DNA of 64,000 nt from Escherichia coli (GCF_003991155.1 NZ_CP031293.1), one strand, 5' to 3'; shown: positions 3,345 through 35,515, numbered from the stretch's first letter. The notes: generated from the sequence alone by a model not told the origin. Numbers and translations are program-made.

Positions 3345-3360
3345 GCCGAAATTTGCTCGT

Positions 3361-3395
3361 ATCTACAATGTAGATTGATATATACTGTATCTACA
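3361..3395. promoter_or_regulatory. mazEF promoter/operator with overlapping (alternating) palindromes
   Basis: TCTACAATGTAGA palindrome at 3362-3374 and TGTAGAT/ATCTACA arms at 3369-3375 and 3389-3395 directly upstream of mazE. Confidence 0.6.
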
Positions 3396-3421
3396 TATGA
3401 TAGCGGTTTGAGGAAAGGGTT

Positions 3422-3670
3422 ATGATCCACAGTAGCGTAAAGCGTTGGGGAAATTCTCCTGCAGTGCGGATCCCAGCTACGTTAATGCAGGCGCTCAATC
3501 TGAATATTGATGATGAAGTGAAGATTGGCCTGGTGGATGGCAAATTAATTATTGAGCCAGTACGTAAAGAGCCCGTATTTACGCTTGCTGAACTGGTCAG
3601 CGACATCACGCCGGAAAACCTCCACGAGAATATCGACTGGGGGGAGCCGAAAGATAAGGAAGTCTGGTAA
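3422..3670 (+). CDS. mazE: antitoxin MazE
   Basis: 82 aa; AbrB/SpoVT-like fold sequence [23 protein letters not shown]; overlaps mazF start by 1 nt. Confidence 0.95.
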
Positions 3671-4005
3671 TGGTAAGCCGATACGTACCCGATATGGGCG
3701 ATCTGATTTGGGTTGATTTTGACCCGACAAAAGGTAGCGAGCAAGCCGGACATCGTCCGGCTGTTGTCCTCAGTCCGTTCATGTACAACAACAAAACAGG
3801 TATGTGTCTGTGTGTTCCTTGTACAACGCAATCAAAAGGATATCCGTTTGAAGTTGTTCTATCCGGTCAGGAACGTGATGGCGTAGCGTTAGCTGATCAG
3901 GTAAAAAGTATCGCCTGGCGGGCAAGAGGAGCAACGAAGAAAGGAACAGTTGCCCCAGAGGAATTACAACTCATTAAAGCCAAAATTAACGTGCTGATTG
4001 GGTAG
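3670..4005 (+). CDS. mazF: endoribonuclease toxin MazF
   Basis: 111 aa PemK/MazF family; start overlaps mazE stop (TAATG). Confidence 0.95.
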   Translation: MVSRYVPDMGDLIWVDFDPTKGSEQAGHRPAVVLSPFMYNNKTGMCLCVPCTTQSKGYPFEVVLSGQERDGVALADQVKSIAWRARGATKKGTVAPEELQLIKAKINVLIG

Positions 4006-4076
4006 GTGTTACTAACTCACTTCTATTCTGGTCACAGGTTTCCACCTGACGGACCCGCAATTTTCAGGACAATTCA

Positions 4077-5080: not shown

Positions 5081-6733
<1,653 letters not shown>

Positions 6734-6751
6734 GAAAAAAGTTAGAACGGC

Positions 6752-6780
6752 AACGCGTACCCTGGGTACGCGTTGTTTGT
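6752..6780 (+). terminator. hairpin between pyrG and eno (partial terminator / processing site)
   Basis: AACGCGTAC-cctgg-GTACGCGTT perfect 9-bp stem followed by GTTTGT. Confidence 0.45.
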
Positions 6781-6804
6781 CTGGAGTTTCAGTTTAACTA
6801 GTGA

Positions 6805-8118
<1,314 letters not shown>

Positions 8119-8137
8119 GTCTGACTTTATCTGATTT

Positions 8138-8169
8138 AAAAATGCCAGCCTTCGGGCTGGCATTTTTTA
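8138..8169. terminator. bidirectional intrinsic terminator shared by eno (+) and the convergent TPM gene (-)
   Basis: AAAAA TGCCAGCC ttcg GGCTGGCA TTTTTT; A-run on one side and T-run on the other. Confidence 0.8.
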
Positions 8170-8177
8170 TGGTTGAG

Positions 8178-9050
8178 TTACCAGCGACCGGACGCGCCGC
8201 CACCGCCAGAAGAACCGCCCCCGCCGCTAAATCCGCCGCCACTTGAGCCGCCACCGGAACCGCTGTTGTCTGAATGATAACTTCTACCAGATGCTTTTTT
8301 CTGAAGTACACATAAACAGGTAAAGACCATAATGGTGGTGAAAGTAAAAAAGAAGAAAAATACAGCAATGGAAAAAGTTTTATCGGAGAACAGGAATAAA
8401 TCTAAAAGATAGATTGCTGAAATACAGACACTGCTTTTACATGCGCGACAAAAATTACTGCCTTGATGAAAAAACCAGAAAGGGAAGAACATCACTGCAA
8501 ATACCCAAAAAATAGCAAAGTAATAATGATCACTGGAAGACGCTGATTCAATTTCTGAAGGATTAGCCGGATATTGGTGTTGTGAAGTGAGTTGGTTATT
8601 CAAAGCGTTTATAGCTAGCTCTAATCCCTGAGCTAATTTTTGTTGTTTAAATGCGGGTATCATGTTGCTACGGATGATATCTCCAGCCAGAGCATCGGTT
8701 ACCTTTTCTTCCAGCCCATAACCTACCTGGATGCGGACAGTGCGGTCCGACCAGGCAACAATGATCAGTATCCCATCATTGCGTTTGGCATCTCCTAAAC
8801 GCCAATTGTTAAAAACCCTTGTAGCATATTGTTCAATAGAATCGTCTCCGGTGGATGGCACTATTAATACAGCGACCTGTGCCCGTGTTTTTTGTGTAAT
8901 ATCCTGCAGCTGTTGTGTTAGTGATTGTTGTTCAGACGTGCTTAAGGTACCAGTAATATCGGTCACCTGTTGGCGCAGCTCCGGCACTGCAATTTGCTGG
9001 GTAAGCCCAGGAAGGCACCATAAAGTAAGTAGAAAAAAGATTAAGCGCAT
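8178..9050 (-). CDS. TPM-domain (YgcG-like) membrane protein, paralog C; ATG start at 9050 chosen over GTG at 9059
   Basis: Signal peptide, TPM/DUF477-like domain ([29 protein letters not shown]...), hydrophobic segment, C-terminal [25 protein letters not shown]. Confidence 0.8.
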
Positions 9051-9055
9051 AATGA

Positions 9056-10204
9056 TCACCAGCGTCCGGATGAACCGCCGCCTCCTGAAGAACCGCCACC
9101 ACCGCGGAAAGAATTTCTCGACGAAGAGCGAGAATGAGCATTACGATTCCCCGTTTTCCTGTTGCTTTTTTCTCCTGACCCCAGTTTAAGATTGCCAGTA
9201 AATTTGGCCACAATGATCAGCAGAACGATGCCAGCAATGGTTATTGGGCCGATAAAATGATCAATTAACCCAATAATTGTTGAGATGAATGCAATATCTT
9301 TATTACTGGCGAACACCAGGCACCATCCCACAACAATTATCAGCATCACGACAAACAATGAATTTCGTCCTGATTCAGGAAATTGCTGGGTCTTCTTTTG
9401 TTTTTTCACTTTAGTGTTTTTATTTTTGGGGGCCAGCATCATAGGAAATGCGCGGCACATATTAAAAACTACCGCGAGACGCTGCCAGCAGGTTGTTGCT
9501 AACAATAAACTAAAACAAACGATCGACACCCGCCGAATGATGACATCATCCTGAAAGAAGAAAAACCAGACCATAGGGGTAATCATCGATATCATCCATA
9601 TGCCAGGCCCAGGACGGCTGGTAAATCGCCAGAGGACAACGATGGCAACGATCATCAGCAGTGTCCAGGCAAGACATGGCAGCGAACGTTGTGGATTAGC
9701 AAACAGATGATTGGCTAAAGCATCCAAAGGGCTAAGGTTCGCTTTGATATGGGTAAACTGTGCGATGCTTTCAATTCCGCCCGTTAATCCAGCAAAGAGA
9801 TTGCTTTTTTCGAATTCTGGCTGCATATGGTAACGAACAATTTGCGCAGCTTGTTCTGGCGGCAACATCTGTTCCAGTCCATGTCCAATCTTCATTGACG
9901 CCAGCCCTTCCGGCCATACGACGAGAATTAAGATACCTTCGCCATATCGCTTCTCTCCAACGGGTTTCCAGTGATATAACCCGTATCTCTGCGAGGCTGC
10001 AAGTTTAATGTTTTTGCCCCCTGTAGTCGGCGTAACCAACACGGCCACCTGGAAGTGGTTTTGCTGCTCGAGAGTCTGTAATTGTTGATTTAAAGCAGTT
10101 TGTTCTTCTGTCGTTAATGTCCCGGTTAAGTCAGTTACTGAAGGCAATTGTTCAGCGAATACCTGAAAACCGCATAGCATCAGAAGTAAGAGAAAAATAC
10201 GCAT
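9056..10204 (-). CDS. TPM-domain membrane protein, paralog B, with extended polytopic membrane region
   Basis: 382 aa; signal peptide, TPM domain ([23 protein letters not shown]...), about 200 aa hydrophobic region, C-terminal [15 protein letters not shown]; RBS AAGGAA. Confidence 0.8.
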
Positions 10205-10218
10205 ATCAATTCCTTTTG

Positions 10219-11112
10219 TTACCAGCGTCCGGAAGCGCCACCGCCACCAGATGAACCGCCACCACCGCGGAAATTGTCATTGTCGAATGAAGAGGATGAC
10301 GATGACGAATAGTGGGAGGAAGAATTACTTCTTGTATGGCGTGATGGCTGGTTGGTATTACGCATCGAATCCCGAACCTTTTTGCCGAAGGGAGTAAAAG
10401 CGATGGCGACAGCCAGGAACGGTGTGGCGAAGCAGAGTAATGTTGCGAGCACTCCCCAGCTTCCGCTGAAACCTGCTATAGGTAAAACAAAGGCCAGTAC
10501 AATAGCTGCGAAGCAAATCAGTCCCAGCGTTTTGATATATCCTCTGGCAGAAATAAACGTCAGTATTATCGCCCAGACTAACAAAGCCCACCAACCGCTA
10601 AAGGGCAAAGGGTGATCGGTCGGTGTTATCGTTGCTGAATTATTCCCCGTCAGGCGACTTTCAATATCGTTGATCCCCTTTTGTAAACCACCAGCCAGGT
10701 CGCCTTTTTTAAATGCCGGAATAATACTGTTGCGAATAATTTTCCCGGACTGTGCATCCGTAATAATACCTTCCAGTCCGTAACCGATTTCAATACGCAC
10801 GGTATGATCCTGCCAGGCGACTAACAGTAGAACGCCATCATCGCGGTCTTTATCACCCGGTTTCCAGCTATCGAATACCCGCGTTGCGTACTGCTCGATG
10901 GTTTCATCGCCTGTTGTATCAACCACTAACACGACCAACTGTGCGTGGTTTTTTTGCGTCAGGGCTTTAATCTGGTTGGTCAGGGTGTTTACTTCGCTGT
11001 TTGTTAATGTGCCGGTTAAGTCATTCACATACTTGGGGGATTCAGGTACTGGAATTTGTGTGGCAAACACAGATGAACAGAAGAAAGCCATAAGGAAGAT
11101 AAAATTTCGCAT
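10219..11112 (-). CDS. TPM-domain membrane protein, paralog A; start at internal ATG (MRNFIFLMAFF signal peptide)
   Basis: TPM domain ([29 protein letters not shown]...), TM segments, Ser-rich linker, C-terminal [15 protein letters not shown]; 13 bp downstream of lemA stop. Confidence 0.8.
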   Translation of the reverse strand: MRNFIFLMAFFCSSVFATQIPVPESPKYVNDLTGTLTNSEVNTLTNQIKALTQKNHAQLVVLVVDTTGDETIEQYATRVFDSWKPGDKDRDDGVLLLVAWQDHTVRIEIGYGLEGIITDAQSGKIIRNSIIPAFKKGDLAGGLQKGINDIESRLTGNNSATITPTDHPLPFSGWWALLVWAIILTFISARGYIKTLGLICFAAIVLAFVLPIAGFSGSWGVLATLLCFATPFLAVAIAFTPFGKKVRDSMRNTNQPSRHTRSNSSSHYSSSSSSSFDNDNFRGGGGSSGGGGASGRW

Positions 11113-11125
11113 AGAACTTCCCCGC

Positions 11126-11728
11126 TTAATGCGCATTAGCATTCTGGCTAAAATCTATTGTTGGGGCTTTACTTACTGCGGTGACATCATCCGGCAAATA
11201 ATTTTTCTTTGGTGTGTAATCCATGACCTTTGCGGTTAATACAGCGGGGAATTTGCGGATAGTGACATTATATTGTTCAATGGCTTTAATATATCTTCCT
11301 CGCGCAACGGCAATTCTATTTTCACTTCCTTCGAGCTGTACCATTAAGTTTTGATAGAGTTCCTGAGCTTTTAACTCAGGGTAACGTTCACTAATTATCG
11401 TTAACTGACCGAGAGTGCGAGACACCTGCGCCTGGGCTTGTTGCCAGGCTTGTAATTTTTGCGCATCTCCCGGAGCTTGCTGAAGATCGCTACTGGCGCG
11501 ATTAGCCTGGCTACGTGCCAATGTTACGGCTTCCAGTACCTCTTGTTCATGGCTGGAATAACCTTTAATACTGGCGACAAGATTAGGAATAAGATCGGCG
11601 CGACGTTGATATTGATTCAATACCTCAGACCAGGAGGCGTTAACCTGCTCATCATAGGTTTGAATATCGTTATATCCACAGCCTGATAAATTGACAATAA
11701 ATATAATTACGATGAATATCCTGAGCAT
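11126..11728 (-). CDS. lemA: LemA-family lipoprotein/membrane protein
   Basis: 200 aa; N-terminal lipobox-like NLSGC; LemA-family sequence pattern; first gene of the lemA-TPM operon. Confidence 0.8.
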   Translation of the reverse strand: MLRIFIVIIFIVNLSGCGYNDIQTYDEQVNASWSEVLNQYQRRADLIPNLVASIKGYSSHEQEVLEAVTLARSQANRASSDLQQAPGDAQKLQAWQQAQAQVSRTLGQLTIISERYPELKAQELYQNLMVQLEGSENRIAVARGRYIKAIEQYNVTIRKFPAVLTAKVMDYTPKKNYLPDDVTAVSKAPTIDFSQNANAH

Positions 11729-11900
11729 GTCTATGTCCCTTTTAATTAATTCCTTAAAACATAATACGCCGCTTCATTTTATTCTTTATGATCTCATCCA
11801 CTTTTTGCCTTAAACCTGCCTGTAACAGAATGTTAATAAGACATGATTGTTGTGGCAGGATCTGCAATAATTAACAATTATCCACTTCACAGAGAATGCT

Positions 11901-12572
11901 ATGCAGTACCCGATTAACGAGATGTTCCAGACCCTGCAAGGTGAGGGTTACTTTACCGGCGTCCCCGCCATTTTTATTCGTTTACAGGGATGCCCGGTTG
12001 GCTGTGCCTGGTGCGACACCAAACACACCTGGGAAAAGCTTGAGGATCGGGAAGTTTCCCTTTTCAGCATTCTGGCGAAGACCAAAGAGAGTGATAAGTG
12101 GGGGGCTGCGAGCAGTGAAGATTTGCTGGCTGTCATTGGTCGCCAGGGATACACCGCGCGGCATGTGGTGATTACGGGTGGTGAGCCTTGCATTCATGAT
12201 TTGCTGCCACTGACTGACCTGCTCGAAAAGAACGGTTTTAGCTGCCAGATCGAAACCAGTGGTACTCATGAAGTACGCTGCACACCGAATACCTGGGTTA
12301 CCGTATCGCCAAAGCTGAATATGCGCGGCGGCTATGAAGTGTTGTCACAGGCACTGGAGCGAGCCAACGAAATCAAGCATCCAGTGGGACGCGTACGTGA
12401 TATCGAAGCACTGGATGAATTGCTTGCGACGCTGACCGATGATAAACCGCGAGTCATTGCACTTCAGCCAATTAGCCAGAAGGAAGATGCTACGCGTTTA
12501 TGTATCGATACCTGCATAGCGCGCAACTGGCGTTTGTCGATGCAGACACATAAATATTTGAATATTGCCTGA
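11901..12572 (+). CDS. queE: 7-carboxy-7-deazaguanine synthase (radical SAM)
   Basis: 223 aa; Cys motif CPVGCAWCDT; divergent from lemA operon. Confidence 0.93.
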   Translation: MQYPINEMFQTLQGEGYFTGVPAIFIRLQGCPVGCAWCDTKHTWEKLEDREVSLFSILAKTKESDKWGAASSEDLLAVIGRQGYTARHVVITGGEPCIHDLLPLTDLLEKNGFSCQIETSGTHEVRCTPNTWVTVSPKLNMRGGYEVLSQALERANEIKHPVGRVRDIEALDELLATLTDDKPRVIALQPISQKEDATRLCIDTCIARNWRLSMQTHKYLNIA

Positions 12573-12610
12573 TTTGATTATTCATCATTAATATTTAACG
12601 TTCAGAATGA

Positions 12611-12640
12611 AAATAATCGCCCCGTTTTACAGGGGCGATG
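12611..12640 (-). terminator. intrinsic terminator for scrR (hairpin also downstream of queE)
   Basis: ATCGCCCC-gttttaca-GGGGCGAT with T-run on the minus strand. Confidence 0.65.
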
Positions 12641-12656
12641 CAAGATAGTGACGGGA

Positions 12657-13664
12657 TTATCGGTAGCGTTTTTGTAGACTGGCTGGAAGATAACGCTGTA
12701 ATGGGGATGGCGTTTCACCTTCAATCAGTTGCGAAATAAGCTCAAAGCAGTGAAAAGCAAGTTGGCGATTATCCTGTTGTATTGTGTCGATTCTTACCGA
12801 AAGTGAATCATACAAGTAATGATCATCAAAACTCGCCAGGTGGATTTTACTGTCGAGTAAATTATATTGGCTCATATAGCGCAGAACGCCTTCCAGTAAT
12901 CCACAAGCGGCAGTGAATAAGGCTTTAGGGGGACGTCCTAAACGAGCGCATAGCGCGGCAAACATTTCATAGCCTGAGCTCGGATGATAATTACCGTGAA
13001 TAATCCATTCAGGTTGTAGCGTTACTCCGGCTTGCTGCAAGCCTTGTGTAAATCCTTCCAGTCGATCGCGAGTCGGTGACAAACGGGGTTGTCCCCCCAG
13101 AAAATAGAATTCATCCGGGTGACTCCGTGCAATATCTGCCACCAGAGCGGTGGTGGGAGAAACAGAGTCAGTAATGACCAATGGCAATGTGCTGCCGTTC
13201 ATGTGGCGATCGAACAACACAACAGGTAATTGCTCGCTAAGTTTTTGATAGTCATTATCATGCAGCATACTGGATGCGACGATTAACCCATCAACCTGGC
13301 GGGCAATCATATTGTTCACCACCATTGTTTCCTGTGAAGGATTTTCATCAGTACAGGATATGAGGAGTTGGACGCCCGCTTCCCGACACAATGTTTCCAG
13401 TTCATGGGAAAATACTGCAAATCCGTAGTTAGTGATTTCAGGAACGACGAGACCAATGGTATGACTGCGGTTGTCCCGTAATGAGCGGGCATGAATGCTG
13501 GGCTGATAATGCTGCTGTTGGGCAATACTCAGCACACGCTCACGCGTTTCCTGCGCAACACGTAACTCTTTGCCACGACCATTGAGAACCAGACTGGCGG
13601 TTGCTTTCGACACTCCCGCCAGTTCAGCAATGTCTTTAATAGTAACGCGTTTGGTTTTTCTCAC
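12657..13664 (-). CDS. scrR: LacI-family sucrose operon repressor
   Basis: 335 aa; N-terminal HTH ([23 protein letters not shown]); position at end of scr operon. Confidence 0.88.
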
Positions 13665-13689
13665 GACGAGGATCCGTAATTCAAAACCC

Positions 13690-15099
13690 TCATTCTACCA
13701 TGCAGGCGCGTAGCGACCAGTAGCGTAACGTGACGTCAGACTCACCCTGTAATATCAGCGAAGCTGGATGATGGGGAAAATAACGATTACTCATTACACC
13801 TTCACCATTATTGATGAATATCTCTACGCTGGAACTGTCACAGAGAATCTTCAGTGACGTTACGCTTCCTCGCCAGTAACGAGTTAGTTTCTCTTGCCCT
13901 GCAAGGCTTCTCCTCTGTAGTTGAATACCATCGTCATTAAGATGCAGTGCCAGCGCATTGCCAAAATTCAGATACAGCTCACCCGACGGAATGATGTCCA
14001 TTTCCAGGCGTTCAATTTCGACATGCGGCGCATGATCTGCTTTTCCTTGCCAGAAGTGTTCAGCTTCACGCAGTTGCGCGAGTTCCCTGATTGGCATCTG
14101 AAACAATTTTCCCTTCTGGAATGAGAGTTCGCGAAAACAGGTCATTTGATGCTGCCAATGATGCTTTCTGGTTGGTTGCAACATCTCTTCGCCATCAGGA
14201 ACCCCCATCCAGCCGACCAGCAATCGTCGCCCGTCCGGGGCTTCCATCGTCTGTGGTGCATAGAATTCAAATCCCGCATCCAGCTCTGAGAAAGCGCCAT
14301 GCGTAAATTTGCCTGTCTCGTAATCAAACTGTCCATGTAGCCAGGCGCAGGGATAAGTATTCAGATAGCGCTCATGTTCGCGCACCATTCCCTGGGGGCA
14401 ACAGAGGAGAATGTATTCACCATCAAGGGCGAAAAAATCAGGACATTCCCACATGTATCCTGCGTTATCTATTTCATTCAGACCGTTACCAGCAATTTCT
14501 CCATGAAAAGACCAGGTATAGAGATCGACAGAGGAATACAGCAGCACTTTCCCCCGTTTCTCTTTATCTTGCGCGCCAAGCACCATGTACCATTGGCTGT
14601 TGTGCTTCCAGACTTTTGGATCACGAACATGTCCGGTGTAACCATCAGGTAACGGTATGACAGGGCCTAGTTTATCAAACCCGCCCTGGTTATTTTCGGT
14701 GGCCAGGCATTGCCATGCCGTTCTGCTGCCATCATCAAACTTAACATTACCGGTATAGCAAAGTGTGAGAACGCCCTGATTATTAACCGCGCTTCCTGAG
14801 TAACAACCATTACGGTCGTACTCTTTATCGGGCATTAGCGCTAATGGTTCATGCTGCCAGTGCAATAAATCCGTCGAACTCCAGTGCCCCCAACATTTGT
14901 ACTTATGATCACAAGCCAGTGGATTCCACTGATAAAACAGATGATAGCGGCCTCCAGACCAGCAAAAGCCATTTGGATCGTTCATTAGTCCAGTGACGGG
15001 AGCGAGATGCCAACAAGGATAGTGGGCATCTGCCAGTACTTTGGACTGACCTTTCATCACTGCCTGTAAAATCGCGGGCATTTGTGAAGGCATCGACAT
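13690..15099 (-). CDS. scrB: sucrose-6-phosphate hydrolase (GH32 invertase)
   Basis: 469 aa; GH32 motif MNDPNGF, WECPD; start overlaps scrA stop. Confidence 0.92.
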
Positions 15100-16469
15100 T
15101 ACTCCTCGTCCGTTTTGTATTTGAGTAATAAAGAGAGGCTAAAAGCGACAGCGAAAGCAATCACCATTCCAATAATATAATTAACCAACGATGTTGGCTG
15201 AACGATTGCCATGCCGGGTATTGCGGTCAGACCAACGGCAGTCATATAAACGTGAACAGAGACAACCCAGGCACCGCCGGCAGCGCCACCAATTAAGGCC
15301 GCAATAAAAGGTTTAACAAAACGAAGGTTGATACCAAAAATAGCGGCTTCAGTAATCCCTAACATTGCGGAAAAGGCCGAGGGTAGGGTGATTGCTTTAA
15401 TTTTTGTATCTTTGGTTTTAAACCATACCGCCAGACATGCACCGCCTTGCGCAACGTTTGCCATTGCCCAAATAGGCAGCAGGAAATTAACACCGATTGC
15501 AGGGTTACCTAAAAGTCCTGCTTCAATTGCGTGGAAGCTATGATGAATACCCGTAATAACAATCGCTGAATATAGTCCGCCGAATAACAACCCTGCTAAC
15601 CAGCCTGCGTGTGCAATCAGCGTGCTGAGAACGAAAGAGATACCGTCACCTAACGCTCGTCCTGCCGGACCAATAATCAAAAGAGCGATAAAGCCAGAAA
15701 TGACGACAGTCAGAAATGGCGTCAGAATGAGATCCAGAGCATCAGGGATAAACCTGCGTAACTGTTTTTCCACTATGCTCATAAACCATACTGCCAGAAG
15801 TACGGGGAAAACCGTTCCCTGATAGCCAATCATGGCGATTTCAAAACCGAAGAAGTTCATTGTCTGAAATCCCGCAGCAACGCCCCAGGCATTTGTGAGT
15901 GCCGGGTGAGTCAGAATCCCTCCTAATGTCGCGCCAAGATAAGGATTTCCACCAAATTCACGAGCAGCAGTAAAGCCAATAAGGATGGGGAGAATAATAA
16001 ATGCGGCTGAACTGCACATATCCAGCAGGATATAAATCGCATTATCGGCATTCACCCAGCCATATATTTTCACCATTCCCAGAAGCCCCATTAATAAACC
16101 AGAAGCAACAATGGCTGGAATGATGGGGACAAAAATATTAGAAAGTAGCCGTGCTATTCGCTGAAAAGGATTGAGTTTTTGAGCGGCGAGTCGAGCGGTA
16201 TCTGCTTTACTGGATTCGCTAATACCTGCAACCTGAATAAAGGCAGCATAGACTTTATTAACCACGCCGGTGCCAAAGATGATTTGCATTTGCCCTGAAT
16301 TACGAAAACAACCTTTCACTCCATCAATCTGGCCAATGGCATGTTGATCGGCAAGTGTGTCGTCAACCAGTACCAGCCGTAGGCGAGTGGCGCAATGTGC
16401 TGCACTGGTGATGTTCTCCTTACCACCTAATAAAGGAAGCAACGATTGGGCGATTTTATCGAAATCCAT
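15099..16469 (-). CDS. scrA: PTS sucrose-specific EIIBC component
   Basis: 456 aa; EIIB Cys motif (AAHCATRLRL) followed by EIIC membrane domain. Confidence 0.92.
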   Translation of the reverse strand: MDFDKIAQSLLPLLGGKENITSAAHCATRLRLVLVDDTLADQHAIGQIDGVKGCFRNSGQMQIIFGTGVVNKVYAAFIQVAGISESSKADTARLAAQKLNPFQRIARLLSNIFVPIIPAIVASGLLMGLLGMVKIYGWVNADNAIYILLDMCSSAAFIILPILIGFTAAREFGGNPYLGATLGGILTHPALTNAWGVAAGFQTMNFFGFEIAMIGYQGTVFPVLLAVWFMSIVEKQLRRFIPDALDLILTPFLTVVISGFIALLIIGPAGRALGDGISFVLSTLIAHAGWLAGLLFGGLYSAIVITGIHHSFHAIEAGLLGNPAIGVNFLLPIWAMANVAQGGACLAVWFKTKDTKIKAITLPSAFSAMLGITEAAIFGINLRFVKPFIAALIGGAAGGAWVVSVHVYMTAVGLTAIPGMAIVQPTSLVNYIIGMVIAFAVAFSLSLLLKYKTDEE

Positions 16470-16529
16470 ATAACCCTCTAATTCATTGTTATTTCAGTAA
16501 AAGCCTCACATCCGTGAGGCTGTCTGGTA

Positions 16530-18071
<1,542 letters not shown>

Positions 18072-18091
18072 TTATAAAAATTGCTAAAATG

Positions 18092-18105
18092 CTAAACCGG
18101 TTTAG
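18092..18105. promoter_or_regulatory. candidate ScrR operator (perfect palindrome CTAAACCGGTTTAG) upstream of scrY
   Basis: 14-bp perfect palindrome in scrK-scrY intergenic region. Confidence 0.6.
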
Positions 18106-18150
18106 GTGTTGATAATAAAGCTGACTTTTTAGCCAGAGCAATTATTTTCG

Positions 18151-18164
18151 CTAAACCGATTTAG
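18151..18164. promoter_or_regulatory. candidate second ScrR operator (CTAAACCGATTTAG)
   Basis: near-perfect copy of the palindrome 59 bp from the first. Confidence 0.55.
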
Positions 18165-18217
18165 TAAATGTGACAGGCACGACAAATCGGGTTACAGATA
18201 CAACAGCAGGATCACTA

Positions 18218-19135
18218 TTATGAAGGGAGATCGTGTTGTCGGGGTAAGGCGGTCATCGCGCCTTTAGCCGTGGTCGCCAGAGCACCACAAATCTGAGCTT
18301 GTGCAATGATTCGTTCAAGCTGTCTGGTATTTGTTGGTATTCCAGAATCAGCCAGACCTGCAAGTAATCCAGCGACAAAAGCATCTCCTGCCCCGGTCGT
18401 ATCGACGACAGAAACAGGTTTGGCGGGATAGTGGATAAACTGCCCCTGAAAATACACAAGTACGCCATTTTTTCCTTGTGTAATAAGCAATAAAGTCAAC
18501 GAATAACGTTGTACTAATGAATATGCGCCTTGCTGAACCTGGCTTTCGCCACTGATGAATAGCAACTCTTCTTCGGACAATTTAGCGATATTCGCCAGCG
18601 AAAGTGCGCGATCAAGGTATTTCCTTAATAGCGCTTCACTCTGCCAGAGATCGCTGCGGATATTGGGATCAAAACTGATGTTTCCGCCAGCCTGACGTAT
18701 TTTCTCCATAGCCAGAAATGCGGTACTTCGGGAAGGTTCTGCACTGAGCGCAATGGAACAAAGATGGAGCCATTCACCCGGCCCAAATGCAGGAAGGTCA
18801 CCAGGTTGTAAAAAAAGATCGGCACTTGGGCGTACCATAAAGGTAAAGTTTCTTTCTCCTTGCTCATCAAGTCCTACAGCCACAATTGAGGTGCGTTGTT
18901 GAGGATCAAGAGACATATAACGTGTATCAACATTTTCTGTACTCAGTGTCTGATACATAAAGCGACCGAAAGGATCATCGCCAACTTTGCCAATAAAGGC
19001 ACTTTTCCCCCCCAGCCTTGCGATACCGACTGCAACATTAGCAGGCGCCCCGCCAGGACACTGTAGTAGTCTCCCCTGGCTTTCGGGTAATAAATCAACA
19101 ACCGCATCACCGAGTACCCATACTCTTGCGCTCAT
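18218..19135 (-). CDS. scrK: fructokinase (PfkB family)
   Basis: 305 aa; PfkB/ribokinase motifs (DTTGAGDAF); first gene of scr cluster; RBS GGAG. Confidence 0.9.
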   Translation of the reverse strand: MSARVWVLGDAVVDLLPESQGRLLQCPGGAPANVAVGIARLGGKSAFIGKVGDDPFGRFMYQTLSTENVDTRYMSLDPQQRTSIVAVGLDEQGERNFTFMVRPSADLFLQPGDLPAFGPGEWLHLCSIALSAEPSRSTAFLAMEKIRQAGGNISFDPNIRSDLWQSEALLRKYLDRALSLANIAKLSEEELLFISGESQVQQGAYSLVQRYSLTLLLITQGKNGVLVYFQGQFIHYPAKPVSVVDTTGAGDAFVAGLLAGLADSGIPTNTRQLERIIAQAQICGALATTAKGAMTALPRQHDLPS

Positions 19136-19166
19136 AAAGGCTCCAATATACTAATTGCTAAACTAA

Positions 19167-19180
19167 TTAAATCGGTTTAG
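19167..19180. promoter_or_regulatory. candidate ScrR operator upstream of scrK (TTAAATCGGTTTAG)
   Basis: third copy of the same half-site pattern in the scrK promoter region. Confidence 0.5.
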
Positions 19181-19299
19181 CAATTAAAGCATAAACGCTG
19201 CTCAGGAGAGAACAATATTCAGCAGTGGTTACCCGGTATTTTGTGGTGGAAACGTGAATATGCCGGGATTAATCATCTACCCGGCACTGTTTATCTCAC

Positions 19300-20778
19300 T
19301 TACGCATTCGACCAGCTCTGGATCGAATCTTCATTCCCCAGCTCACCATGCATCACTTCATACGATTTTTTCAGGATCACATCAGTGTGCTTGGTTAGGT
19401 CTTTGAAAATGCCTTTATTCATCGCGTCGTAGCGTTTGGCATTGCTCTCAATCGGTATGAAGATATCTTTCACGCGAACCATTTTATCGACAGCCGTTGC
19501 GTAATCCGGGTATAGCCCCAGACCTACCGCCGTATTGATCGCTGCCCCCAGACTTGCACAACCATTAATGGCGTTACGGCGTGCCGGAAGGTTGAACACG
19601 TCGGCAAAAATCTGCATAAACAGATCGCTGTTCGAACCGCCGCCAGTAATGATCACATGCTTTGCAAAGTGATTCATTTCATTACACATATTGTCGTAAT
19701 TGTTCTTCAGCGTCAGCGCCACGCTTTCCAGTATCGAACGATATATCCATGCGTAATCCATGCTGGAATCAAAGCCGATCATAATCCCGCGTTTGTATGG
19801 TTCCCACGGATTGGTCAGCCAGTCCAGCACCGTCATCAGACCATTACAGCCAGGCGGCACACAAGACGCTTTTTTGTTGAGCAAATCTTCCGGTGAAAGA
19901 TCCTGTGCTTTGGCATCCTGAATTAACGACTCGCCTAGCATGTCGCGTAGCCAGCTCACCGTCCACATGCCTTTGCGAATACCGTAACCTTCATACAGCA
20001 AGGTTTGCGGAATAGAAGACATAATCGGCCAGTACGCTACCGGATCTTTCGGCAGTGCTTTACCGTTCATCATCAGCGCGATGTAGGTGCCAAGAGAAAT
20101 CACCGCCGTTTCATCATCCAGTAATCCGGCTCCCAGAGCTTCTACCGGTTTATCACTGGTGGTACAAACAACCGGCAGCCCAGCCGGGAAATGTGTCGCC
20201 AGCGCGGCTTGACGAGTGATATGCCCAAGAACAGTGCCCGGCATTTGCACATCAAAAAGCATCTGTCGGGGAATATTAAACTTCTCCATTACCGCGGTAT
20301 CTTCGCTCCATGCCCAGGTCTTATAATCCACCGGCCACTGACCAAAATAGTTGGCGATATTGTCTTTAAACTCGCCGGTTAAGCGATGCGTCAGATAACC
20401 TGAAAAAGAGGTGACATATGCCACGTCAGGATTCGTATGTTCGTAAGGGCGTGTAACGCGTGCATCCTGCCAGCTAATCAACGGCGCAGCTGGCGTGCCA
20501 TCGGCTTTCAATAACGCACGGCAGCAACGGATGGATCCCAGACCAATACCGACAATATCTTCTTTATTTCCGGCAAACTGACTCATCAAATCGTGACCGG
20601 CAAAACATAATGATGCCCATAAATCGTCGTCAGGATGTTCTGCGGTATCGGCATCTGGCGTGTGCATCGGCTGCAATAAGCCTTTGCCTTCGCAAACCAC
20701 ATTACCTTCCAGATCGTACATCACCACTTTTGTGCTCTGACTTCCGCCATCAATCCCTATGATGTATTTTTTCGACAT
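19300..20778 (-). CDS. ygcE: FGGY-family carbohydrate kinase
   Basis: 492 aa; FGGY N-terminal motif (IGIDGGSQSTKVV) and C-terminal domain. Confidence 0.88.
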   Translation of the reverse strand: MSKKYIIGIDGGSQSTKVVMYDLEGNVVCEGKGLLQPMHTPDADTAEHPDDDLWASLCFAGHDLMSQFAGNKEDIVGIGLGSIRCCRALLKADGTPAAPLISWQDARVTRPYEHTNPDVAYVTSFSGYLTHRLTGEFKDNIANYFGQWPVDYKTWAWSEDTAVMEKFNIPRQMLFDVQMPGTVLGHITRQAALATHFPAGLPVVCTTSDKPVEALGAGLLDDETAVISLGTYIALMMNGKALPKDPVAYWPIMSSIPQTLLYEGYGIRKGMWTVSWLRDMLGESLIQDAKAQDLSPEDLLNKKASCVPPGCNGLMTVLDWLTNPWEPYKRGIMIGFDSSMDYAWIYRSILESVALTLKNNYDNMCNEMNHFAKHVIITGGGSNSDLFMQIFADVFNLPARRNAINGCASLGAAINTAVGLGLYPDYATAVDKMVRVKDIFIPIESNAKRYDAMNKGIFKDLTKHTDVILKKSYEVMHGELGNEDSIQSWSNA

Positions 20779-20804
20779 GATTTTTCTCCTGTAATTTTCC
20801 TGGC

Positions 20805-22082
20805 TTACTTGCTGCTAGCCATTGCGGGGGCGCTATCAGCAGTACGAATTTTTTGGAACAGCAAAAAGGTAAAGATGATCACCATGGCAAGCGCCGCCAT
20901 GCCCATTAGCCACATGTTGCGGTAGGCTTCTGCAGCGGGCAGGGTGTCTTGCCAGTGGCCGATAATCGGGTAAACGAAGACATCCGGCAGGAATCCAATC
21001 ACCGAACAAATACCTACCGTGGTGCCCATAATGTAAGACGGTGTTCTCGCTTCGCCGGGGCAGGCCCAGTACAGTCCACGTGAGGCGTAGCAGGTGAATC
21101 CCAGTAGTAAAATCAGGCCAATCCCCATAGCGACCGATTGCGGGTTAGAGTTGGTAACAAGCAGGGCAGTCAGTGCCAGCAGGCCGATGATGGAAAGGAT
21201 TTGAATTACGCGGGTAGGGGATTTCACTTTACTGTAGGTGGTGATAATGCCGCCAAGTGGACCACACAGCGCGCGGAATATTTTGTTGATCACAATCCCC
21301 ATGTAGCTCGCCGCCACCAGCGACATGCCGTACATTTCGGTGAGATAGTTGGTGGAGTAACTCAGAATGGCGTAGATGGTGAAGACGCCAAAAATCACCA
21401 TGCTGCAATACCAGGTGGTGCTGATGCGCAAAACGGCCAGGATGTCGCTAAGCTGGAATGATTGTTTTTCTTCGTTATTGGCACTGCGCAGGTTGTTGTT
21501 ATCGCTAACAAAAAACCAGCACAGAATCCCCAACAAGATGTAAACCACACTATAGATGATAATGACCGTTTTCAGGCTGGCGCTGTCATCCGGTGCAAAG
21601 CGAGAAAAGACCCACATGGTAAACACCGCCAGCGACATTACACCGACGCCGCGCAGCCCTTCCATCCAGCCCATAATTTTCCCTTGCTCGCTATGATCGC
21701 CCAGCAACGATGCGGCTTTAATCGACACCGACCACAGCATTAAAATCGTCGTTATCGCAAAGGCAACCTGAATACAGAGCATTACCCACAGCGGTGGATA
21801 AGTTGCCATTAACAGACCCAGTAATCCGGTAATGATCATCGCGGAAGTAATCATTTTGCGATGTGAGAATTTATCGGCAATAACGCCACTGGGCGCATAA
21901 AGAATAATAGCTGCAATACCAAAGGTACTCATTATTAAACCTATCTCGGTATTGCTGAATCCCATAAATTTCGCCATGGGAATTTGATAAATATAACGTA
22001 AATAAGCCAGGTCGAAACTAACGCCGCCGCTAAAACTAATTATCGCGAGGGTTATCCAACGGCGATATGAGTTGTGTTGCAT
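20805..22082 (-). CDS. yqcE: MFS transporter
   Basis: 425 aa, 12 predicted TM segments. Confidence 0.85.
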   Translation of the reverse strand: MQHNSYRRWITLAIISFSGGVSFDLAYLRYIYQIPMAKFMGFSNTEIGLIMSTFGIAAIILYAPSGVIADKFSHRKMITSAMIITGLLGLLMATYPPLWVMLCIQVAFAITTILMLWSVSIKAASLLGDHSEQGKIMGWMEGLRGVGVMSLAVFTMWVFSRFAPDDSASLKTVIIIYSVVYILLGILCWFFVSDNNNLRSANNEEKQSFQLSDILAVLRISTTWYCSMVIFGVFTIYAILSYSTNYLTEMYGMSLVAASYMGIVINKIFRALCGPLGGIITTYSKVKSPTRVIQILSIIGLLALTALLVTNSNPQSVAMGIGLILLLGFTCYASRGLYWACPGEARTPSYIMGTTVGICSVIGFLPDVFVYPIIGHWQDTLPAAEAYRNMWLMGMAALAMVIIFTFLLFQKIRTADSAPAMASSK

Positions 22083-22104
22083 ATCGTATTCCCATTTGTA
22101 ATAG

Positions 22105-22153
22105 ACAAAAAAAGAGAAAAGTAAGCCGCCCTTTCAGGTGGATTACTTTTCTC
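22105..22153 (-). terminator. leader intrinsic terminator/attenuator about 23 nt upstream of yqcE start
   Basis: 11-bp stem GAGAAAAGTAA/TTACTTTTCTC with 18-nt loop, followed on the minus strand by a 7-T run. Confidence 0.6.
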
Positions 22154-22259
22154 AGGTCTCTAGTAATTGCAATAAGAAATAACATGGAAAGCAGTGGTGT
22201 TGTGTGAGAGTAGTCACGCTTCTGCTTTTTAAAATTATTTGATAATACGAATATCACAC

Positions 22260-22275
22260 TGTGATTACGATCACA
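22260..22275. promoter_or_regulatory. CRP binding site (TGTGA-N6-TCACA) in yqcE/ygcW divergent region
   Basis: TGTGATTACGATCACA is a perfect match to both consensus half-sites. Confidence 0.7.
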
Positions 22276-22327
22276 TTAGCGCTTATGCCCTTATGCTAAA
22301 AATTATATCCAGTTACCAGAGATAATG

Positions 22328-22375
22328 AGAAAGGTAACTTCCCTCTCGCGGGGGAAGTTACCTTTCTTTTTTTTT
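22328..22375 (+). terminator. leader intrinsic terminator/attenuator about 24 nt upstream of ygcW start
   Basis: 16-bp perfect stem (GAAAGGTAACTTCCCC / GGGGAAGTTACCTTTC), 7-nt loop, followed by a 9-T run. Confidence 0.75.
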
Positions 22376-22399
22376 GCTTTACGGAAATTGGAGCTAACT

Positions 22400-23185
22400 A
22401 TGTCAATCGAATCTCTCAATGCGTTCTCAATGGATTTTTTCTCCCTGAAAGGTAAAACATCAATTGTTACCGGCGGGAATAGTGGATTAGGCCAGGCATT
22501 TGCCATGGCGCTGGCCAAGGCTGGCGCAAATGTCTTTATTCCAAGTTTCGTCAAAGATAACGGCGAAACAAAGGAAATGATTGAAAAACAGGGTGTTGAA
22601 GTGGACTTCATGCAGGTGGATATCACCGCAGAAGGCGCACCACAGAAGATTATCGCTGCCTGCTGTGAGCGTTTCGGTACCGTCGATATTCTGGTTAACA
22701 ATGCCGGTATATGTAAGCTGAATAAGGTGCTGGACTTCGGGCGTGCCGACTGGGATCCGATGATTGACGTGAACCTTACCGCCGCATTCGAGTTAAGCTA
22801 TGAAGCTGCAAAAATTATGATCCCGCAGAAAAGCGGTAAAATCATTAATATCTGTTCATTATTCTCTTACTTAGGTGGACAATGGTCACCTGCATATTCT
22901 GCCACTAAACATGCTCTTGCCGGATTCACCAAAGCTTATTGTGATGAACTAGGTCAATATAATATTCAGGTAAATGGTATTGCCCCTGGATATTACGCTA
23001 CCGATATCACCCTGGCGACACGCAGTAATCCAGAAACCAATCAGCGCGTTCTTGATCATATTCCAGCAAACCGTTGGGGCGATACTCAGGATTTAATGGG
23101 CGCAGCCGTCTTCCTCGCAAGTCCGGCTTCAAATTATGTTAACGGGCATTTATTAGTGGTCGATGGCGGTTATTTAGTGCGCTAA
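22400..23185 (+). CDS. ygcW: short-chain dehydrogenase/reductase (KduD-like)
   Basis: 261 aa from internal ATG with RBS GGAG; TGGNSGLG Rossmann motif and YxxxK active site. Confidence 0.85.
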   Translation: MSIESLNAFSMDFFSLKGKTSIVTGGNSGLGQAFAMALAKAGANVFIPSFVKDNGETKEMIEKQGVEVDFMQVDITAEGAPQKIIAACCERFGTVDILVNNAGICKLNKVLDFGRADWDPMIDVNLTAAFELSYEAAKIMIPQKSGKIINICSLFSYLGGQWSPAYSATKHALAGFTKAYCDELGQYNIQVNGIAPGYYATDITLATRSNPETNQRVLDHIPANRWGDTQDLMGAAVFLASPASNYVNGHLLVVDGGYLVR

Positions 23186-23254
23186 TCCATAACGGTGGTT
23201 TCTGTTTTCTCTTATTAATGATTATTCTATTTTTATTATCAGGAAGGAATTACT

Positions 23255-24709
23255 ATGTCTTTATCTCGCGCAGCGATTGTCGACCAGCTAAAGGAAATTG
23301 TTGGTGCAGATCGCGTAATTACCGATGAAACAGTATTAAAGAAAAACAGTATTGACCGTTTTCGCAAATTTCCGGATATTCATGGCATTTATACTTTGCC
23401 GATTCCGGCAGCGGTCGTAAAACTCGGTTCCACAGAACAAGTATCCCGTGTGCTGAATTTTATGAATGCGCACAAAATTAACGGTGTGCCGCGTACCGGT
23501 GCTTCCGCTACCGAAGGTGGACTGGAAACCGTTGTGGAAAACTCGGTGGTGCTCGACGGCTCCGCCATGAATCAAATCATTAATATTGATATTGAGAATA
23601 TGCAGGCCACGGCGCAATGTGGCGTTCCGCTGGAAGTGCTGGAAAACGCGTTGCGTGAAAAAGGTTACACCACGGGGCACTCTCCGCAGTCAAAACCGTT
23701 GGCGCAGATGGGTGGACTGGTGGCGACCCGTAGTATCGGGCAGTTCTCCACACTCTACGGCGCAATCGAGGATATGGTCGTTGGTCTGGAAGCAGTATTG
23801 GCTGATGGCACCGTCACACGTATTAAAAACGTGCCACGCCGCGCGGCTGGCCCGGACATTCGTCACATTATCATCGGCAACGAAGGTGCATTGTGCTATA
23901 TCACTGAAGTAACAGTGAAAATCTTTAAGTTCACCCCGGAAAACAACCTCTTCTACGGCTATATCCTGGAAGACATGAAAACCGGCTTCAACATCCTGCG
24001 TGAAATCATGGTGGAAGGGTATCGTCCGTCGATCGCTCGTTTGTATGACGCTGAAGATGGCACCCAACACTTCACCCATTTTGCCGATGGTAAATGTGTG
24101 CTGATCTTTATGGCTGAAGGTAACCCTCGCATTGCGAAGGCGACGGGCGAAGGGATTGCTGAAATCGTGGCACGTTACCCGCAATGCCAGCGCGTGGACA
24201 GTAAGCTGATCGAAACCTGGTTTAATCACCTGAACTGGGGGCCGGATAAAGTGGCTGCCGAACGTGTGCAGATCCTCAAAACCGGCAACATGGGCTTTAC
24301 CACCGAAGTGTCCGGCTGCTGGAGCTGCATCCACGAAATCTACGAAAGCGTTATTAACCGTATTCGTACCGAGTTCGCGCACGCCGACGACATCACCATG
24401 CTGGGCGGTCACTCCTCTCATAGCTATCAGAACGGCACCAACATGTACTTCGTCTACGACTACAACGTCGTTGACTGTAAGCCGGAAGAGGAAATCGACA
24501 AGTACCACAATCCGCTCAACAAAATCATCTGCGAAGAAACCATTCGTCTCGGCGGTTCGATGGTGCACCACCACGGTATCGGTAAACATCGCGTTCACTG
24601 GAGCAAACTGGAACACGGCAGCGCGTGGGCGTTGCTGGAAGGGCTGAAAAAGCAGTTCGATCCTAATGGCATTATGAACACGGGTACTATCTATCCGATT
24701 GAAAAATAA
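23255..24709 (+). CDS. ygcU: FAD-linked oxidase (alkyl-DHAP synthase / D-lactate dehydrogenase-like)
   Basis: 484 aa; FAD-binding PCMH-type domain. Confidence 0.85.
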   Translation: MSLSRAAIVDQLKEIVGADRVITDETVLKKNSIDRFRKFPDIHGIYTLPIPAAVVKLGSTEQVSRVLNFMNAHKINGVPRTGASATEGGLETVVENSVVLDGSAMNQIINIDIENMQATAQCGVPLEVLENALREKGYTTGHSPQSKPLAQMGGLVATRSIGQFSTLYGAIEDMVVGLEAVLADGTVTRIKNVPRRAAGPDIRHIIIGNEGALCYITEVTVKIFKFTPENNLFYGYILEDMKTGFNILREIMVEGYRPSIARLYDAEDGTQHFTHFADGKCVLIFMAEGNPRIAKATGEGIAEIVARYPQCQRVDSKLIETWFNHLNWGPDKVAAERVQILKTGNMGFTTEVSGCWSCIHEIYESVINRIRTEFAHADDITMLGGHSSHSYQNGTNMYFVYDYNVVDCKPEEEIDKYHNPLNKIICEETIRLGGSMVHHHGIGKHRVHWSKLEHGSAWALLEGLKKQFDPNGIMNTGTIYPIEK

Positions 24710-35510: not shown

Positions 35511-35515
35511 CCACC

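Follow-up and report, generated by a model that had tools for sequence, protein, structure and literature searches.

A probably functional Scr sucrose regulon in place of the CRISPR2.2-3 locus between queE and ygcE in Escherichia coli

Results

Gene content of the scr locus

The window, i.e., the whole 64-kb (64,000-nucleotide) stretch of E. coli DNA analyzed here, corresponds to E. coli 2016C-3878 at 100% identity over the 9.2 kb compared. Between positions 12,657 and 19,135 it carries five intact open reading frames, all on the minus strand, encoding ScrR, ScrB, ScrA (EIIBC), ScrY and ScrK (Table 1). An earlier note, made from the sequence alone, had read this block as genes for a fructokinase, a porin, an EIIBC, a sucrose-6-phosphate hydrolase and a LacI-type repressor in the order of plasmid and conjugative-transposon scr regulons; all five were recovered as ORFs at exactly these coordinates, and their products were identified, four through NCBIfam models and the porin through PDB 1A0S. 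The order scrK-scrY-scrA-scrB-scrR on a single strand is that of the pUR400 and Klebsiella regulons, and annotations of copies in E. coli, in Enterobacter and on plasmids show it too.

Table 1. Genes, predicted regulatory elements and boundaries at the scr locus (window coordinates)
Feature	Position	Strand	Description
queE	11901..12572	+	Left flanking core gene; TIGR04322, RefSeq
Replacing segment	12575..19294		6,720 bp between queE and ygcE; stands in place of CRISPR2.2-3 leader and array
Left junction segment	12575..12655		81 bp; specific to the queE-scr arrangement, missing in plasmid and island copies
Terminator-like hairpin	12616..12639	-	Downstream of scrR, within the 81-bp junction segment; 8-bp stem with 6 GC pairs, then T run
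Core scr block	12656..19256		6,601 bp; boundaries seen in alignments
scrR	12657..13664	-	335 aa, GTG start; LacI/GalR-family fructose-responsive repressor; TIGR02417, RefSeq LacI family regulator
scrB	13690..15099	-	469 aa; sucrose-6-phosphate hydrolase, GH32; TIGR01322
scrA	15099..16469	-	456 aa; sucrose-specific PTS EIIBC without EIIA domain; TIGR01996
scrY	16530..18047	-	505 aa; sucrose porin: signal peptide, ~70-residue N-terminal extension, LamB-type barrel
Proximal ScrR-operator-like palindrome	18093..18104		TAAACCGGTTTA; motif match; directly downstream of inferred scrY -10
Putative sigma-70 promoter of scrYAB(R)	18112..18141	-	TTGCTC, 17 nt, TTATTA; between two palindromes; read by eye
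Distal ScrR-operator-like palindrome	18152..18163		TAAACCGATTTA; motif match; directly upstream of inferred scrY -35
Predicted CRP-like site, half conserved	18169..18184	-	TGTCGTGCCTGTCACA; pattern match; upstream of scrY promoter
scrK	18218..19135	-	305 aa; ATP-dependent fructokinase, pfkB family; NF006957
scrK-upstream ScrR-operator-like palindrome	19168..19179		TAAATCGGTTTA; motif match
Hairpin	19262..19285	-	Directly downstream of ygcE stop; unlike the ygcE terminator hairpin of scr-less strains
ygcE	19300..20778	-	Right flanking core gene; FGGY-family kinase; RefSeq annotation

Four of the five gene products, all but ScrY, score above curated NCBIfam cut-offs: ScrR reaches 463 bits against TIGR02417 fruct_sucro_rep (cut-off 389.55), ScrB 549 bits against its model (cut-off 356), ScrA 648 bits (cut-off 559) and ScrK 509.5 bits against NF006957 fructokinase (cut-off 450). 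The reading frames are all full length, without frameshifts, and the catalytic and phosphorylation motifs are intact. ScrB contains NDPNG (residue 40), RDP (159) and ECP (218); ScrA, whose 456 residues make up the IIB and IIC parts only, carries CATRLR in EIIB (Cys26) and GITE at residue 371 in EIIC, and the scrA stop overlaps the scrB start; ScrK carries GGAPAN and DTTGAGD.

No NCBIfam model passed its cut-off for ScrY, and this protein was identified through the pUR400 sucrose porin structures 1A0S, 1A0T and 1OH2 (E 8.6e-226), with residues 93-505 of the query aligned to residues 1-413 of the chain at 76.8% identity over 413 residues. Residues 23-92 are rich in Ala, Gln and Glu, and by their composition look like a putative coiled coil. 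According to ORF calls and annotation, scrY is free of insertion sequences, in contrast to published Suc- isolates. The PGAP annotation labels ScrK as 'aminoimidazole riboside kinase' and ScrY merely as 'carbohydrate porin'.

Predicted regulatory elements

The motif TAAAYCGRTTTA has three matches in the 64 kb, against 0.00 expected from shuffled sequences; two flank the scrY promoter and one precedes scrK. In pUR400, operators occupy matching positions around the scrY promoter and before scrK (PMC11251922), and the scrK palindrome of the window is also kept upstream of C. koseri scrK. By analogy, we infer that the three 12-bp palindromes are ScrR operators. The proposed sigma-70 promoter of scrYAB(R) is likewise putative: a promoter scan of this region listed just a weaker neighbouring candidate and not the TTGCTC-17-TTATTA pair. 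The CRP-like pattern TGTSR-N6-TCACA gave four matches against 0.46 expected; the candidate site upstream of the scrY promoter is only half conserved, which counts against our best explanation of the locus.

Insertion site and replaced CRISPR locus

The scr block is flanked by the core genes queE (369 bits against its TIGR04322 model) and ygcE, as the earlier note had it; ygcE rests on its RefSeq annotation, since every match of its product to NCBIfam FGGY kinase models is under the respective cut-off. The two genes had also been described as adjacent in K-12. They are indeed neighbouring genes there, but are separated by a 1,372-bp spacer with the CRISPR2.2-3 leader and seven type I-E repeats, and no scr genes; scr thus stands in the place of a CRISPR locus and did not drop into an empty gap. 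BL21 carries a longer array at this site, with ~14 repeats plus degenerate remnants, and a scr-less strain with an identical QueE protein has the leader and one degenerate repeat. The limits of the replacing segment were set by alignment, in which BL21 homology stops at 12574 and restarts at 19295, and the sequences of scr-less sites were also read. The 29-bp type I-E repeat has no match at ≤3 mismatches in the whole 64-kb window, which also lacks cas genes; the cysH-iap interval of the window holds a hok-type toxin gene only.

The junction alignments indicate replacement without duplication, with the loss of ≥412 bp of resident sequence. Neither repeats at 12575/19294 or 12656/19256, nor terminal inverted repeats, nor a target-site duplication were seen, and no remnant of a CRISPR repeat is found at either junction. 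The absence of an integrase, transposase or tRNA at the junctions, remarked on previously, extends to integrase, transposase and transfer genes annotated ≤6 kb on either side and to tRNA or tmRNA genes in 8000-24000. No Rfam family matched in 11000-21000, and each ORF of ≥80 aa in 9500-23000 either is annotated as a gene unrelated to mobility or falls inside or partly across such a gene. The right junction segment measures 38 bp. Among the loci compared, the hairpin next to ygcE has an exact match in the window's own strain only.

Distribution of the arrangement

The earlier view of an accessory island is borne out by the distribution: the queE-scr arrangement occurs in 840 of 5,426 complete E. 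coli genomes, and K-12 lacks it. The 81-bp left junction is found once each in exactly these 840 genomes and never on a plasmid, and all metagenome contigs with the junction hairpin (16/16) also have the queE junction; the two observations therefore point to one junction. A UPEC survey found these genes in this region, termed 'Region C', in 47% of its strains (PMC12736100). Copies of the core 12656-19256 are present in other contexts as well. The IncF plasmid pM71902 gives an ungapped 6,601-bp match at 98.85% identity, and a chromosomal, resistance-associated island at a different site in strain E5 matches at 99.1%.

Divergence of the locus and its flanks

The scr core of the window is 99.36-99.39% identical to that of three B2-type scr-positive strains, while ygcE and yqcE are just 96.0-96.3% identical to those of the same strains. 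Mismatches start ~35 bp or less from the right junction, and the ygcE-yqcE haplotype of the window, ~4% from the B2-type strains, is common to 112 genomes at ≥99% identity. Among B2 strains, ygcE is ~3 times more diverged than scr, and scr divergence follows that of pyrG-eno. The 81-bp junction segment shows 3 differences in 81 bp, which is flank-like divergence. The eno-queE interval of the window holds LemA and TPM-domain genes along with mazEF, which are missing in some B2-type strains. A conserved scr core beside diverged ygcE and yqcE is, on these comparisons, not predicted by simple vertical descent, and spread by long flanking recombination tracts would predict the contrast only awkwardly; this, too, weighs against our best explanation.

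Discussion

We report gene identities, intact motifs, palindromes, the location and the population frequency of an E. coli scr locus. The segment is intact and probably functional, and represents the PTS-dependent Scr sucrose regulon found on the chromosome beside queE in some E. coli lineages. A scr cluster at queE is already known, and it is ordinary in the sense that the same arrangement has been described before, by Stephens et al. 2024 (PMC11251922), Touchon and Rocha 2010 (PMC2886076) and a 2025 UPEC survey (PMC12736100).

In the proposed pathway, sucrose would pass the outer membrane through ScrY and be taken up and phosphorylated to sucrose-6-phosphate by ScrA, together with the general PTS proteins and EIIA-Glc, whose genes (ptsHI, crr) lie outside the window. 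ScrB would split sucrose-6-phosphate into glucose-6-phosphate and fructose, and the fructose would be phosphorylated by ScrK. ScrR bound at the three palindromes would repress scrK and scrYAB(R), and fructose or fructose-1-phosphate would release it. The pUR400 and Klebsiella systems, together with the published cloning of a near-identical B2-type locus, lead us to expect ScrR binding at the operators, this kind of inducer, dependence on EIIA-Glc and a Suc+ phenotype.

As to the origin of the block, most likely the CRISPR2.2-3 leader and array were swapped for the 6.7-kb block in a single recombination event that involved no dedicated mobile element. The swap would have spanned the interval from the queE stop to the ygcE stop, with some enterobacterium as donor, and the scr allele would afterwards have spread within E. 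coli by descent and homologous recombination. Among candidate sources, no donor was found: the related scr loci of Enterobacter and C. koseri sit in other contexts, with nothing common beyond scrR and the scrK operator. We hold this overall explanation, a functional Scr regulon acquired through a single replacement of CRISPR2.2-3, to be highly probable. The earlier note had left the insertion mechanism open, in agreement with the published position (PMC11251922), and the present data leave that unchanged.

Three other explanations were weighed against this one. The genes might act on another sugar or in another role (a PTS for trehalose or beta-glucosides, a maltoporin, an aminoimidazole riboside kinase), or they might be a decayed, inactive remnant; this is the least probable of the three. 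The PGAP names of ScrK and ScrY lean that way, ScrA also scores on EII models for trehalose and beta-glucosides, LamB is weakly matched by ScrY, and some scr-positive E. coli isolates are Suc- or grow slowly (PMC11251922). The searches that could have assigned the locus to a different sugar system nevertheless gave the sucrose-specific models as the top ones, alone above their cut-offs, for ScrA, ScrB, ScrR and ScrK, and for ScrY the maltoporin is a remote match (E 1e-13) next to the crystallised sucrose porin. Decay is opposed by the full-length frames, the intact motifs and the uninterrupted scrY, and by the near-identical B2 locus that, once cloned, confers sucrose use (PMC11251922).

The two remaining alternatives concern the way of entry. 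Delivery by a dedicated mobile element (transposon, ICE or integrase island) with its machinery at or near the junctions is already largely refuted, and we give it a very slim chance. Such an element would suit the presence of the same core on conjugative IncF plasmids and in the E5 island, and scr regulons are also carried by pUR400 and by the conjugative transposon CTnscr94. What speaks against it is the lack of integrase, transposase, tRNA, terminal inverted repeats and target-site duplication within the intervals given above, and the replacement, not interruption, of resident DNA. The plasmid copy moreover differs by ~1.0-1.15% from each of the two chromosomal alleles it was compared with and is therefore not a recent source of either, and the published survey is without flanking IS too (PMC11251922). 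Repeated independent entry at the same site across E. coli lineages, site-directed, e.g., with the CRISPR leader or repeats as the target of recombination, is also very unlikely, if marginally less so than a mobile element. It would accommodate a junction that is identical although the flanks are ~4% diverged nearly up to it, a divergence of the scr core from the B2-type strains that is ~6-fold below that of ygcE, and a site that, as a CRISPR locus, is by nature a recombination-prone repeat region. However, the 81-bp junction segment, which lies outside the plasmid-borne core, is always there, and its constancy together with its flank-like divergence fits one old event. Given the excess divergence of ygcE among B2 strains and the tracking of pyrG-eno by scr, much of the contrast is therefore attributable to a hypervariable ygc region. 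In addition, flank replacement from scr-less donors would have to end at the junction, and neither junction retains a CRISPR repeat remnant.

Comparison with known systems

The closest relative of the locus is the chromosomal scr of phylogroup B2 and F strains, which adjoins queE, replaces ~0.5 kb (the CRISPR2.2 region) and has no flanking IS (Stephens et al. 2024, PMC11251922); a cloned B2-type locus is sufficient for a Suc+ phenotype (PMC11251922). Loci of this type were also treated by Trevino-Quintanilla et al. 2007, as cited in PMC11251922, and in SMS-3-5 CRISPR2 is missing owing to the insertion of a sucrose operon (Touchon and Rocha 2010, PMC2886076). Gene set, gene order, insertion site and junction are the same in the window, as are the lack of flanking IS and the replaced CRISPR2.2 region; the difference is allelic only, with the window on another ygcE-yqcE haplotype. 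The CRISPR2.2-3 (CRISPR II) array of K-12 and most E. coli lies in the same ygcE-queE (formerly ygcF) interval, which in the window is without repeats.

The Salmonella plasmid pUR400 and Klebsiella pneumoniae scr regulons, to which the earlier note had proposed a comparison, are alike in gene set, gene order and an EIIBC without EIIA, as well as in two palindromic operators around the scrY promoter and a CRP-like site upstream. The window copy differs in being chromosomal, at a fixed site and without plasmid context. Its ScrY covers the crystallised pUR400 chain in full, at an identity that marks a distinct sequence lineage, and the whole locus has just ~71% nucleotide identity to scr on Klebsiella, Leclercia and Raoultella plasmids. 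CTnscr94 of Salmonella Senftenberg is a conjugative transposon of ~100 kb that carries scr, an integrase and transfer genes and is located at a tRNA gene. It resembles the present case in that scr is cargo which an enterobacterial chromosome gained by horizontal transfer, whereas the window block measures 6.7 kb and has no integrase, transfer genes or tRNA. The non-PTS csc regulon (cscB, cscK, cscA, cscR) is likewise an accessory E. coli sucrose locus, and it too encodes a fructokinase and a repressor of the LacI type. In contrast to the PTS EIIBC, sucrose-6-phosphate hydrolase and porin of the window, however, csc relies on a proton symporter resembling LacY and on sucrose cleavage by a cytoplasmic enzyme, and it has no porin (PMC11251922).

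Composition and putative regulatory sites of the sucrose locus

In the window, five minus-strand genes lie between queE and ygcE, and an earlier note, made from the sequence alone, had assigned them to fructokinase, sucrose porin, sucrose EIIBC, sucrose-6-phosphate hydrolase and a LacI-type repressor. All five open reading frames were recovered with exactly matching coordinates, both flanking genes were found, and the product identities were confirmed, four of them by scores above the NCBIfam cut-offs and that of ScrY, for which no NCBIfam model exceeded its cut-off, by its match to the porin of pUR400. ScrY aligns end to end with the crystallised pUR400 protein (1A0S; 76.8% identity over 413 residues) and is extended at the N terminus by about 70 residues, many of them Ala, Gln or Glu. 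The five reading frames are all full length, and motifs were found in ScrB (NDPNG, RDP and ECP), ScrA (CATRLR and GITE) and ScrK (DTTGAGD). The locus shows every feature of an Scr regulon that can be checked in sequence.

Three copies of the palindrome TAAAYCGRTTTA are present in the 64 kb of the window, where the expected number was zero. Together with the putative scrY promoter, which was read from the sequence and lies between two of the copies, these sites reproduce the operator and promoter layout reported for pUR400; ScrR would be expected to bind the palindromes and control induction. No Rfam RNA family matched the scr region.

Features of the scr locus and its flanking genes in the window
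Feature	Coordinates	Strand	Evidence
queE, flanking gene	11901-12572	+	
Terminator-like hairpin, 3' of scrR	12616-12639		
scrR, LacI repressor, fructose/sucrose subfamily	12657-13664	-	TIGR02417, 463 bits, cut-off 390 (NCBIfam)
scrB, sucrose-6-phosphate hydrolase	13690-15099	-	TIGR01322, 549 bits, cut-off 356 (NCBIfam)
scrA, sucrose-specific PTS EIIBC	15099-16469	-	TIGR01996, 648 bits, cut-off 559 (NCBIfam)
scrY, sucrose porin	16530-18047	-	PDB 1A0S match, E 8.6e-226
Palindrome copy, near putative scrY promoter	18093-18104		
Putative scrY sigma-70 promoter	18141-18112	-	TTGCTC-17 nt-TTATTA
Palindrome copy, near putative scrY promoter	18152-18163		
Candidate CRP-like site, half-conserved	18169-18184		
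scrK, fructokinase	18218-19135	-	NF006957, 509.5 bits, cut-off 450 (NCBIfam)
Palindrome, third copy, upstream of scrK	19168-19179		
ygcE, flanking gene	19300-20778	-	

The scr block occupies the place of a CRISPR locus

The chromosome of E. coli 2016C-3878, which was isolated from a human rectal swab in the USA, matches the window at 100% identity across the 9.2 kb that were compared. In an alignment with a BL21 derivative, homology stops at 12574, two bases past the queE stop codon, and restarts at 19295, at the ygcE stop codon; the foreign segment therefore spans 12575-19294 (6,720 bp). The view that the scr genes are accessory was borne out, since the corresponding K-12 MG1655 spacer holds instead 1,372 bp with seven type I-E CRISPR repeats. 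The note's statement that queE and ygcE are adjacent in K-12 was correct in that they are neighbouring genes, but no empty gap separates them: the spacer is the CRISPR2.2-3 locus, and the scr block therefore replaces this locus rather than having entered an empty gap. At the same site, BL21 carries a leader and a longer array with some degenerate repeats, and an scr-less strain that shares the window's QueE protein carries a leader and one degenerate repeat, 412 bp in total.

A search allowing up to three mismatches detected no type I-E repeat anywhere in the 64-kb window and no CRISPR remnant at the junctions. The cysH-iap spacer, which accommodates the cas operon and CRISPR1 in K-12, lacks both the type I-E cas operon and CRISPR1 in the window, within which no part of the type I-E system is present. 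The spacer (35094-35635) measures only 542 bp and contains an open reading frame for a 50-residue Hok/Gef-type toxin (35358-35510, + strand).

Junction conservation and signs of mobility

Among 5,426 complete E. coli genomes, 840 carry the scr genes contiguous with both flanks. Exactly these 840 also hold a single copy of the 81-bp segment at the left junction (12575-12655), which was chromosomal in every case and plasmid-borne in none; no scar or true empty site, that is, the segment without scr, was detected in this collection. The queE junction was also present on all 16 public metagenome contigs bearing the left-junction hairpin. Together, the genomes and contigs point to a single junction, most simply explained by one founding event at the queE-ygcE site; that the CRISPR2.2-3 locus is a preferred landing or exchange site appears very improbable. 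As the earlier note had remarked, no integrase, transposase or tRNA lies at either junction: annotation and a tRNA search gave none near the scr block, and neither terminal repeats nor a target duplication were found at its ends. On these tests the locus does not qualify as a transposon or an integrase-type island.

Copies of the core elsewhere in E. coli, and scr loci of other species

Ungapped matches to the 6,601-bp core (12656-19256), which extends from the scrR stop codon to ~120 bp before the start of scrK, are also present on 22 plasmids of E. coli, with identities of 95-99%. One of them, the conjugative IncF plasmid pM71902, carries the core at 98.85% (positions 6001-12601 of the extracted comparison locus L007), and E. 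coli strain E5 (NZ_CP104521.1) at 99.1% in a different chromosomal island (positions 8001-14597 of locus L005), where it adjoins resistance genes and is close to sul1, qacEdelta1, IS6100 and hsdS/M genes. On the left, the plasmid and E5 copies have a flank in common that differs from that of the window and is unrelated to queE. An IncF plasmid copy as the recent source of chromosomal scr was ruled out: the plasmid core diverges by 1.05-1.15% from each of two chromosomal alleles, which differ from one another by 0.64-0.67%, and it therefore represents a sister lineage. Plasmid-borne scr loci of Klebsiella, Leclercia and Raoultella are just ~71% identical to the window.

A ScrA scan of 100,044 species-representative genomes returned 20 loci, mostly from Enterobacter, Klebsiella, Raoultella, Cedecea, Citrobacter and Kluyvera, and including one MAG with an ORF layout like that of the E5-type island. 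The flanks examined among them, those of Enterobacter hormaechei and Citrobacter koseri, are unrelated to queE or ygcE; in E. hormaechei an EAL-domain gene lies on one side and a chemoreceptor gene on the other, and the context in C. koseri differs from this. C. koseri is the closest other species in the scan (ScrA 95%), and its alignment with the window showed no similarity past the scrR stop codon and the scrK operator. An exact search with the two junction hairpins matched no strain but the window's own in the set of loci compared. In C. koseri NCTC10786 (locus L027, ~8438-13442), the scr genes appear broken up, with a 346-aa scrY product, a scrA split in two and a 210-aa scrR product, which suggests pseudogenes or assembly errors.

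Divergence of the cassette and its flanks

The window was compared with three scr-positive strains that carry the common B2-type haplotype (GN04171, GmM077 and BH100). Identity to the window was 99.36-99.39% in the scr core, 97.0-97.5% in queE and 95.9-96.4% in ygcE plus yqcE. The junction itself is identical, though the flanks are 3-4% diverged almost up to it; on the right, the first mismatches appear about 35 bp past the junction, and the 81-bp left segment differs from that of GN04171 at three positions. The ygcE-yqcE haplotype of the window is about as distant from K-12 as from the B2-type strains and is matched at ≥99% in 112 of the 5,426 genomes.

This contrast may mean that the descent of the scr block is decoupled from that of its flanks, the two not simply descending together. 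The cassette could have moved between lineages; equally, the flanks could have been replaced later from scr-less donors, since a replacement of this kind necessarily ends at the junction. When the B2-type strains are compared with each other, ygcE shows about three times the divergence of scr, and scr divergence follows that of pyrG-eno in the same strain pairs; we therefore place little weight on the contrast. Given also that the ygc region proved hypervariable in all comparisons, we set aside the reading that low scr divergence proves recent lateral spread.

The stretch of core genes from ygcE to ygcN (19295 to ~31000) differs by 3.6-4% from its counterparts in K-12/BL21-type as well as B2-type strains, in a patchy pattern (92-99% identity per 300-500 bp), the pyrG-eno divergence of the strain pairs used being ~0.7-1.1%. 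The region seems to comprise at least three deep haplotypes.

Other variable positions were observed in the window. The eno-queE interval (8178-11728) contains a LemA-family gene (11126-11728, - strand) and three TPM-domain genes, one of which (~10441-11112) is annotated by PGAP as a partial pseudogene, yet a 307-aa open reading frame covers 10219-11142. The only genes at this place in K-12, BL21 and some B2-type scr-positive strains are yqcG and ygcG, which makes the interval a second variable spot, independent of scr. The mazEF toxin-antitoxin pair (3422-4005), between relA and mazG, is missing at that place in GN04171, GmM077 and Z0117EC0117 (alignment gap at 3344-4035 of the window). Between pphB and rpoS (~46816-49637) lie genes for subunits B, C and D of a non-oxidative hydroxyarylic acid decarboxylase and a MarR-type regulator, which we take to belong to the known polymorphic mutS-rpoS region.

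Comparison with described scr loci

The scr locus accounts for quick sucrose fermentation in a minority of E. coli, ~15% of the complete genomes analyzed here and, according to the literature, mainly phylogroups B2 and F. Sucrose use is relevant to diagnostics, to gut ecology and to sucrose as a feedstock for industry, and scr at queE marks strains without a CRISPR2.2-3 array.

The locus at queE is already known. Stephens et al. (2024, PMC11251922) reported that scr of B2 and F isolates adjoins queE and takes the place that the CRISPR2.2 array has in scr-less strains, that the 6.7-kb locus stands in for ~0.5 kb of DNA, that its flanks lack IS or transposable elements, and that the cloned locus suffices for sucrose fermentation and growth; they credit the earlier observation to Trevino-Quintanilla et al. 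(2007) and Diez-Villasenor et al. (2010). Touchon and Rocha (2010, PMC2886076) had attributed the missing CRISPR2 of SMS-3-5 to insertion of a sucrose operon. A 2025 survey of uropathogenic strains (PMC12736100) found scr genes in this region in 47% of them, often accompanied by a hok-sokX remnant at iap-cysH; a hok-type gene without CRISPR at cysH-iap, as in the window, is a configuration described there for UPEC. Since placement, replaced CRISPR locus, absence of IS elements and function are all published, the window represents a further copy of a described locus. The present analysis makes minor additions: the exact boundaries of the whole segment and of its mobile core, the invariance of the junction over the 840 genomes, the sharp drop in divergence within the cassette, and the E. 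coli-type core on IncF plasmids, plasmid carriage having been given in the published survey only for the C. freundii-like scr type (PMC11251922).
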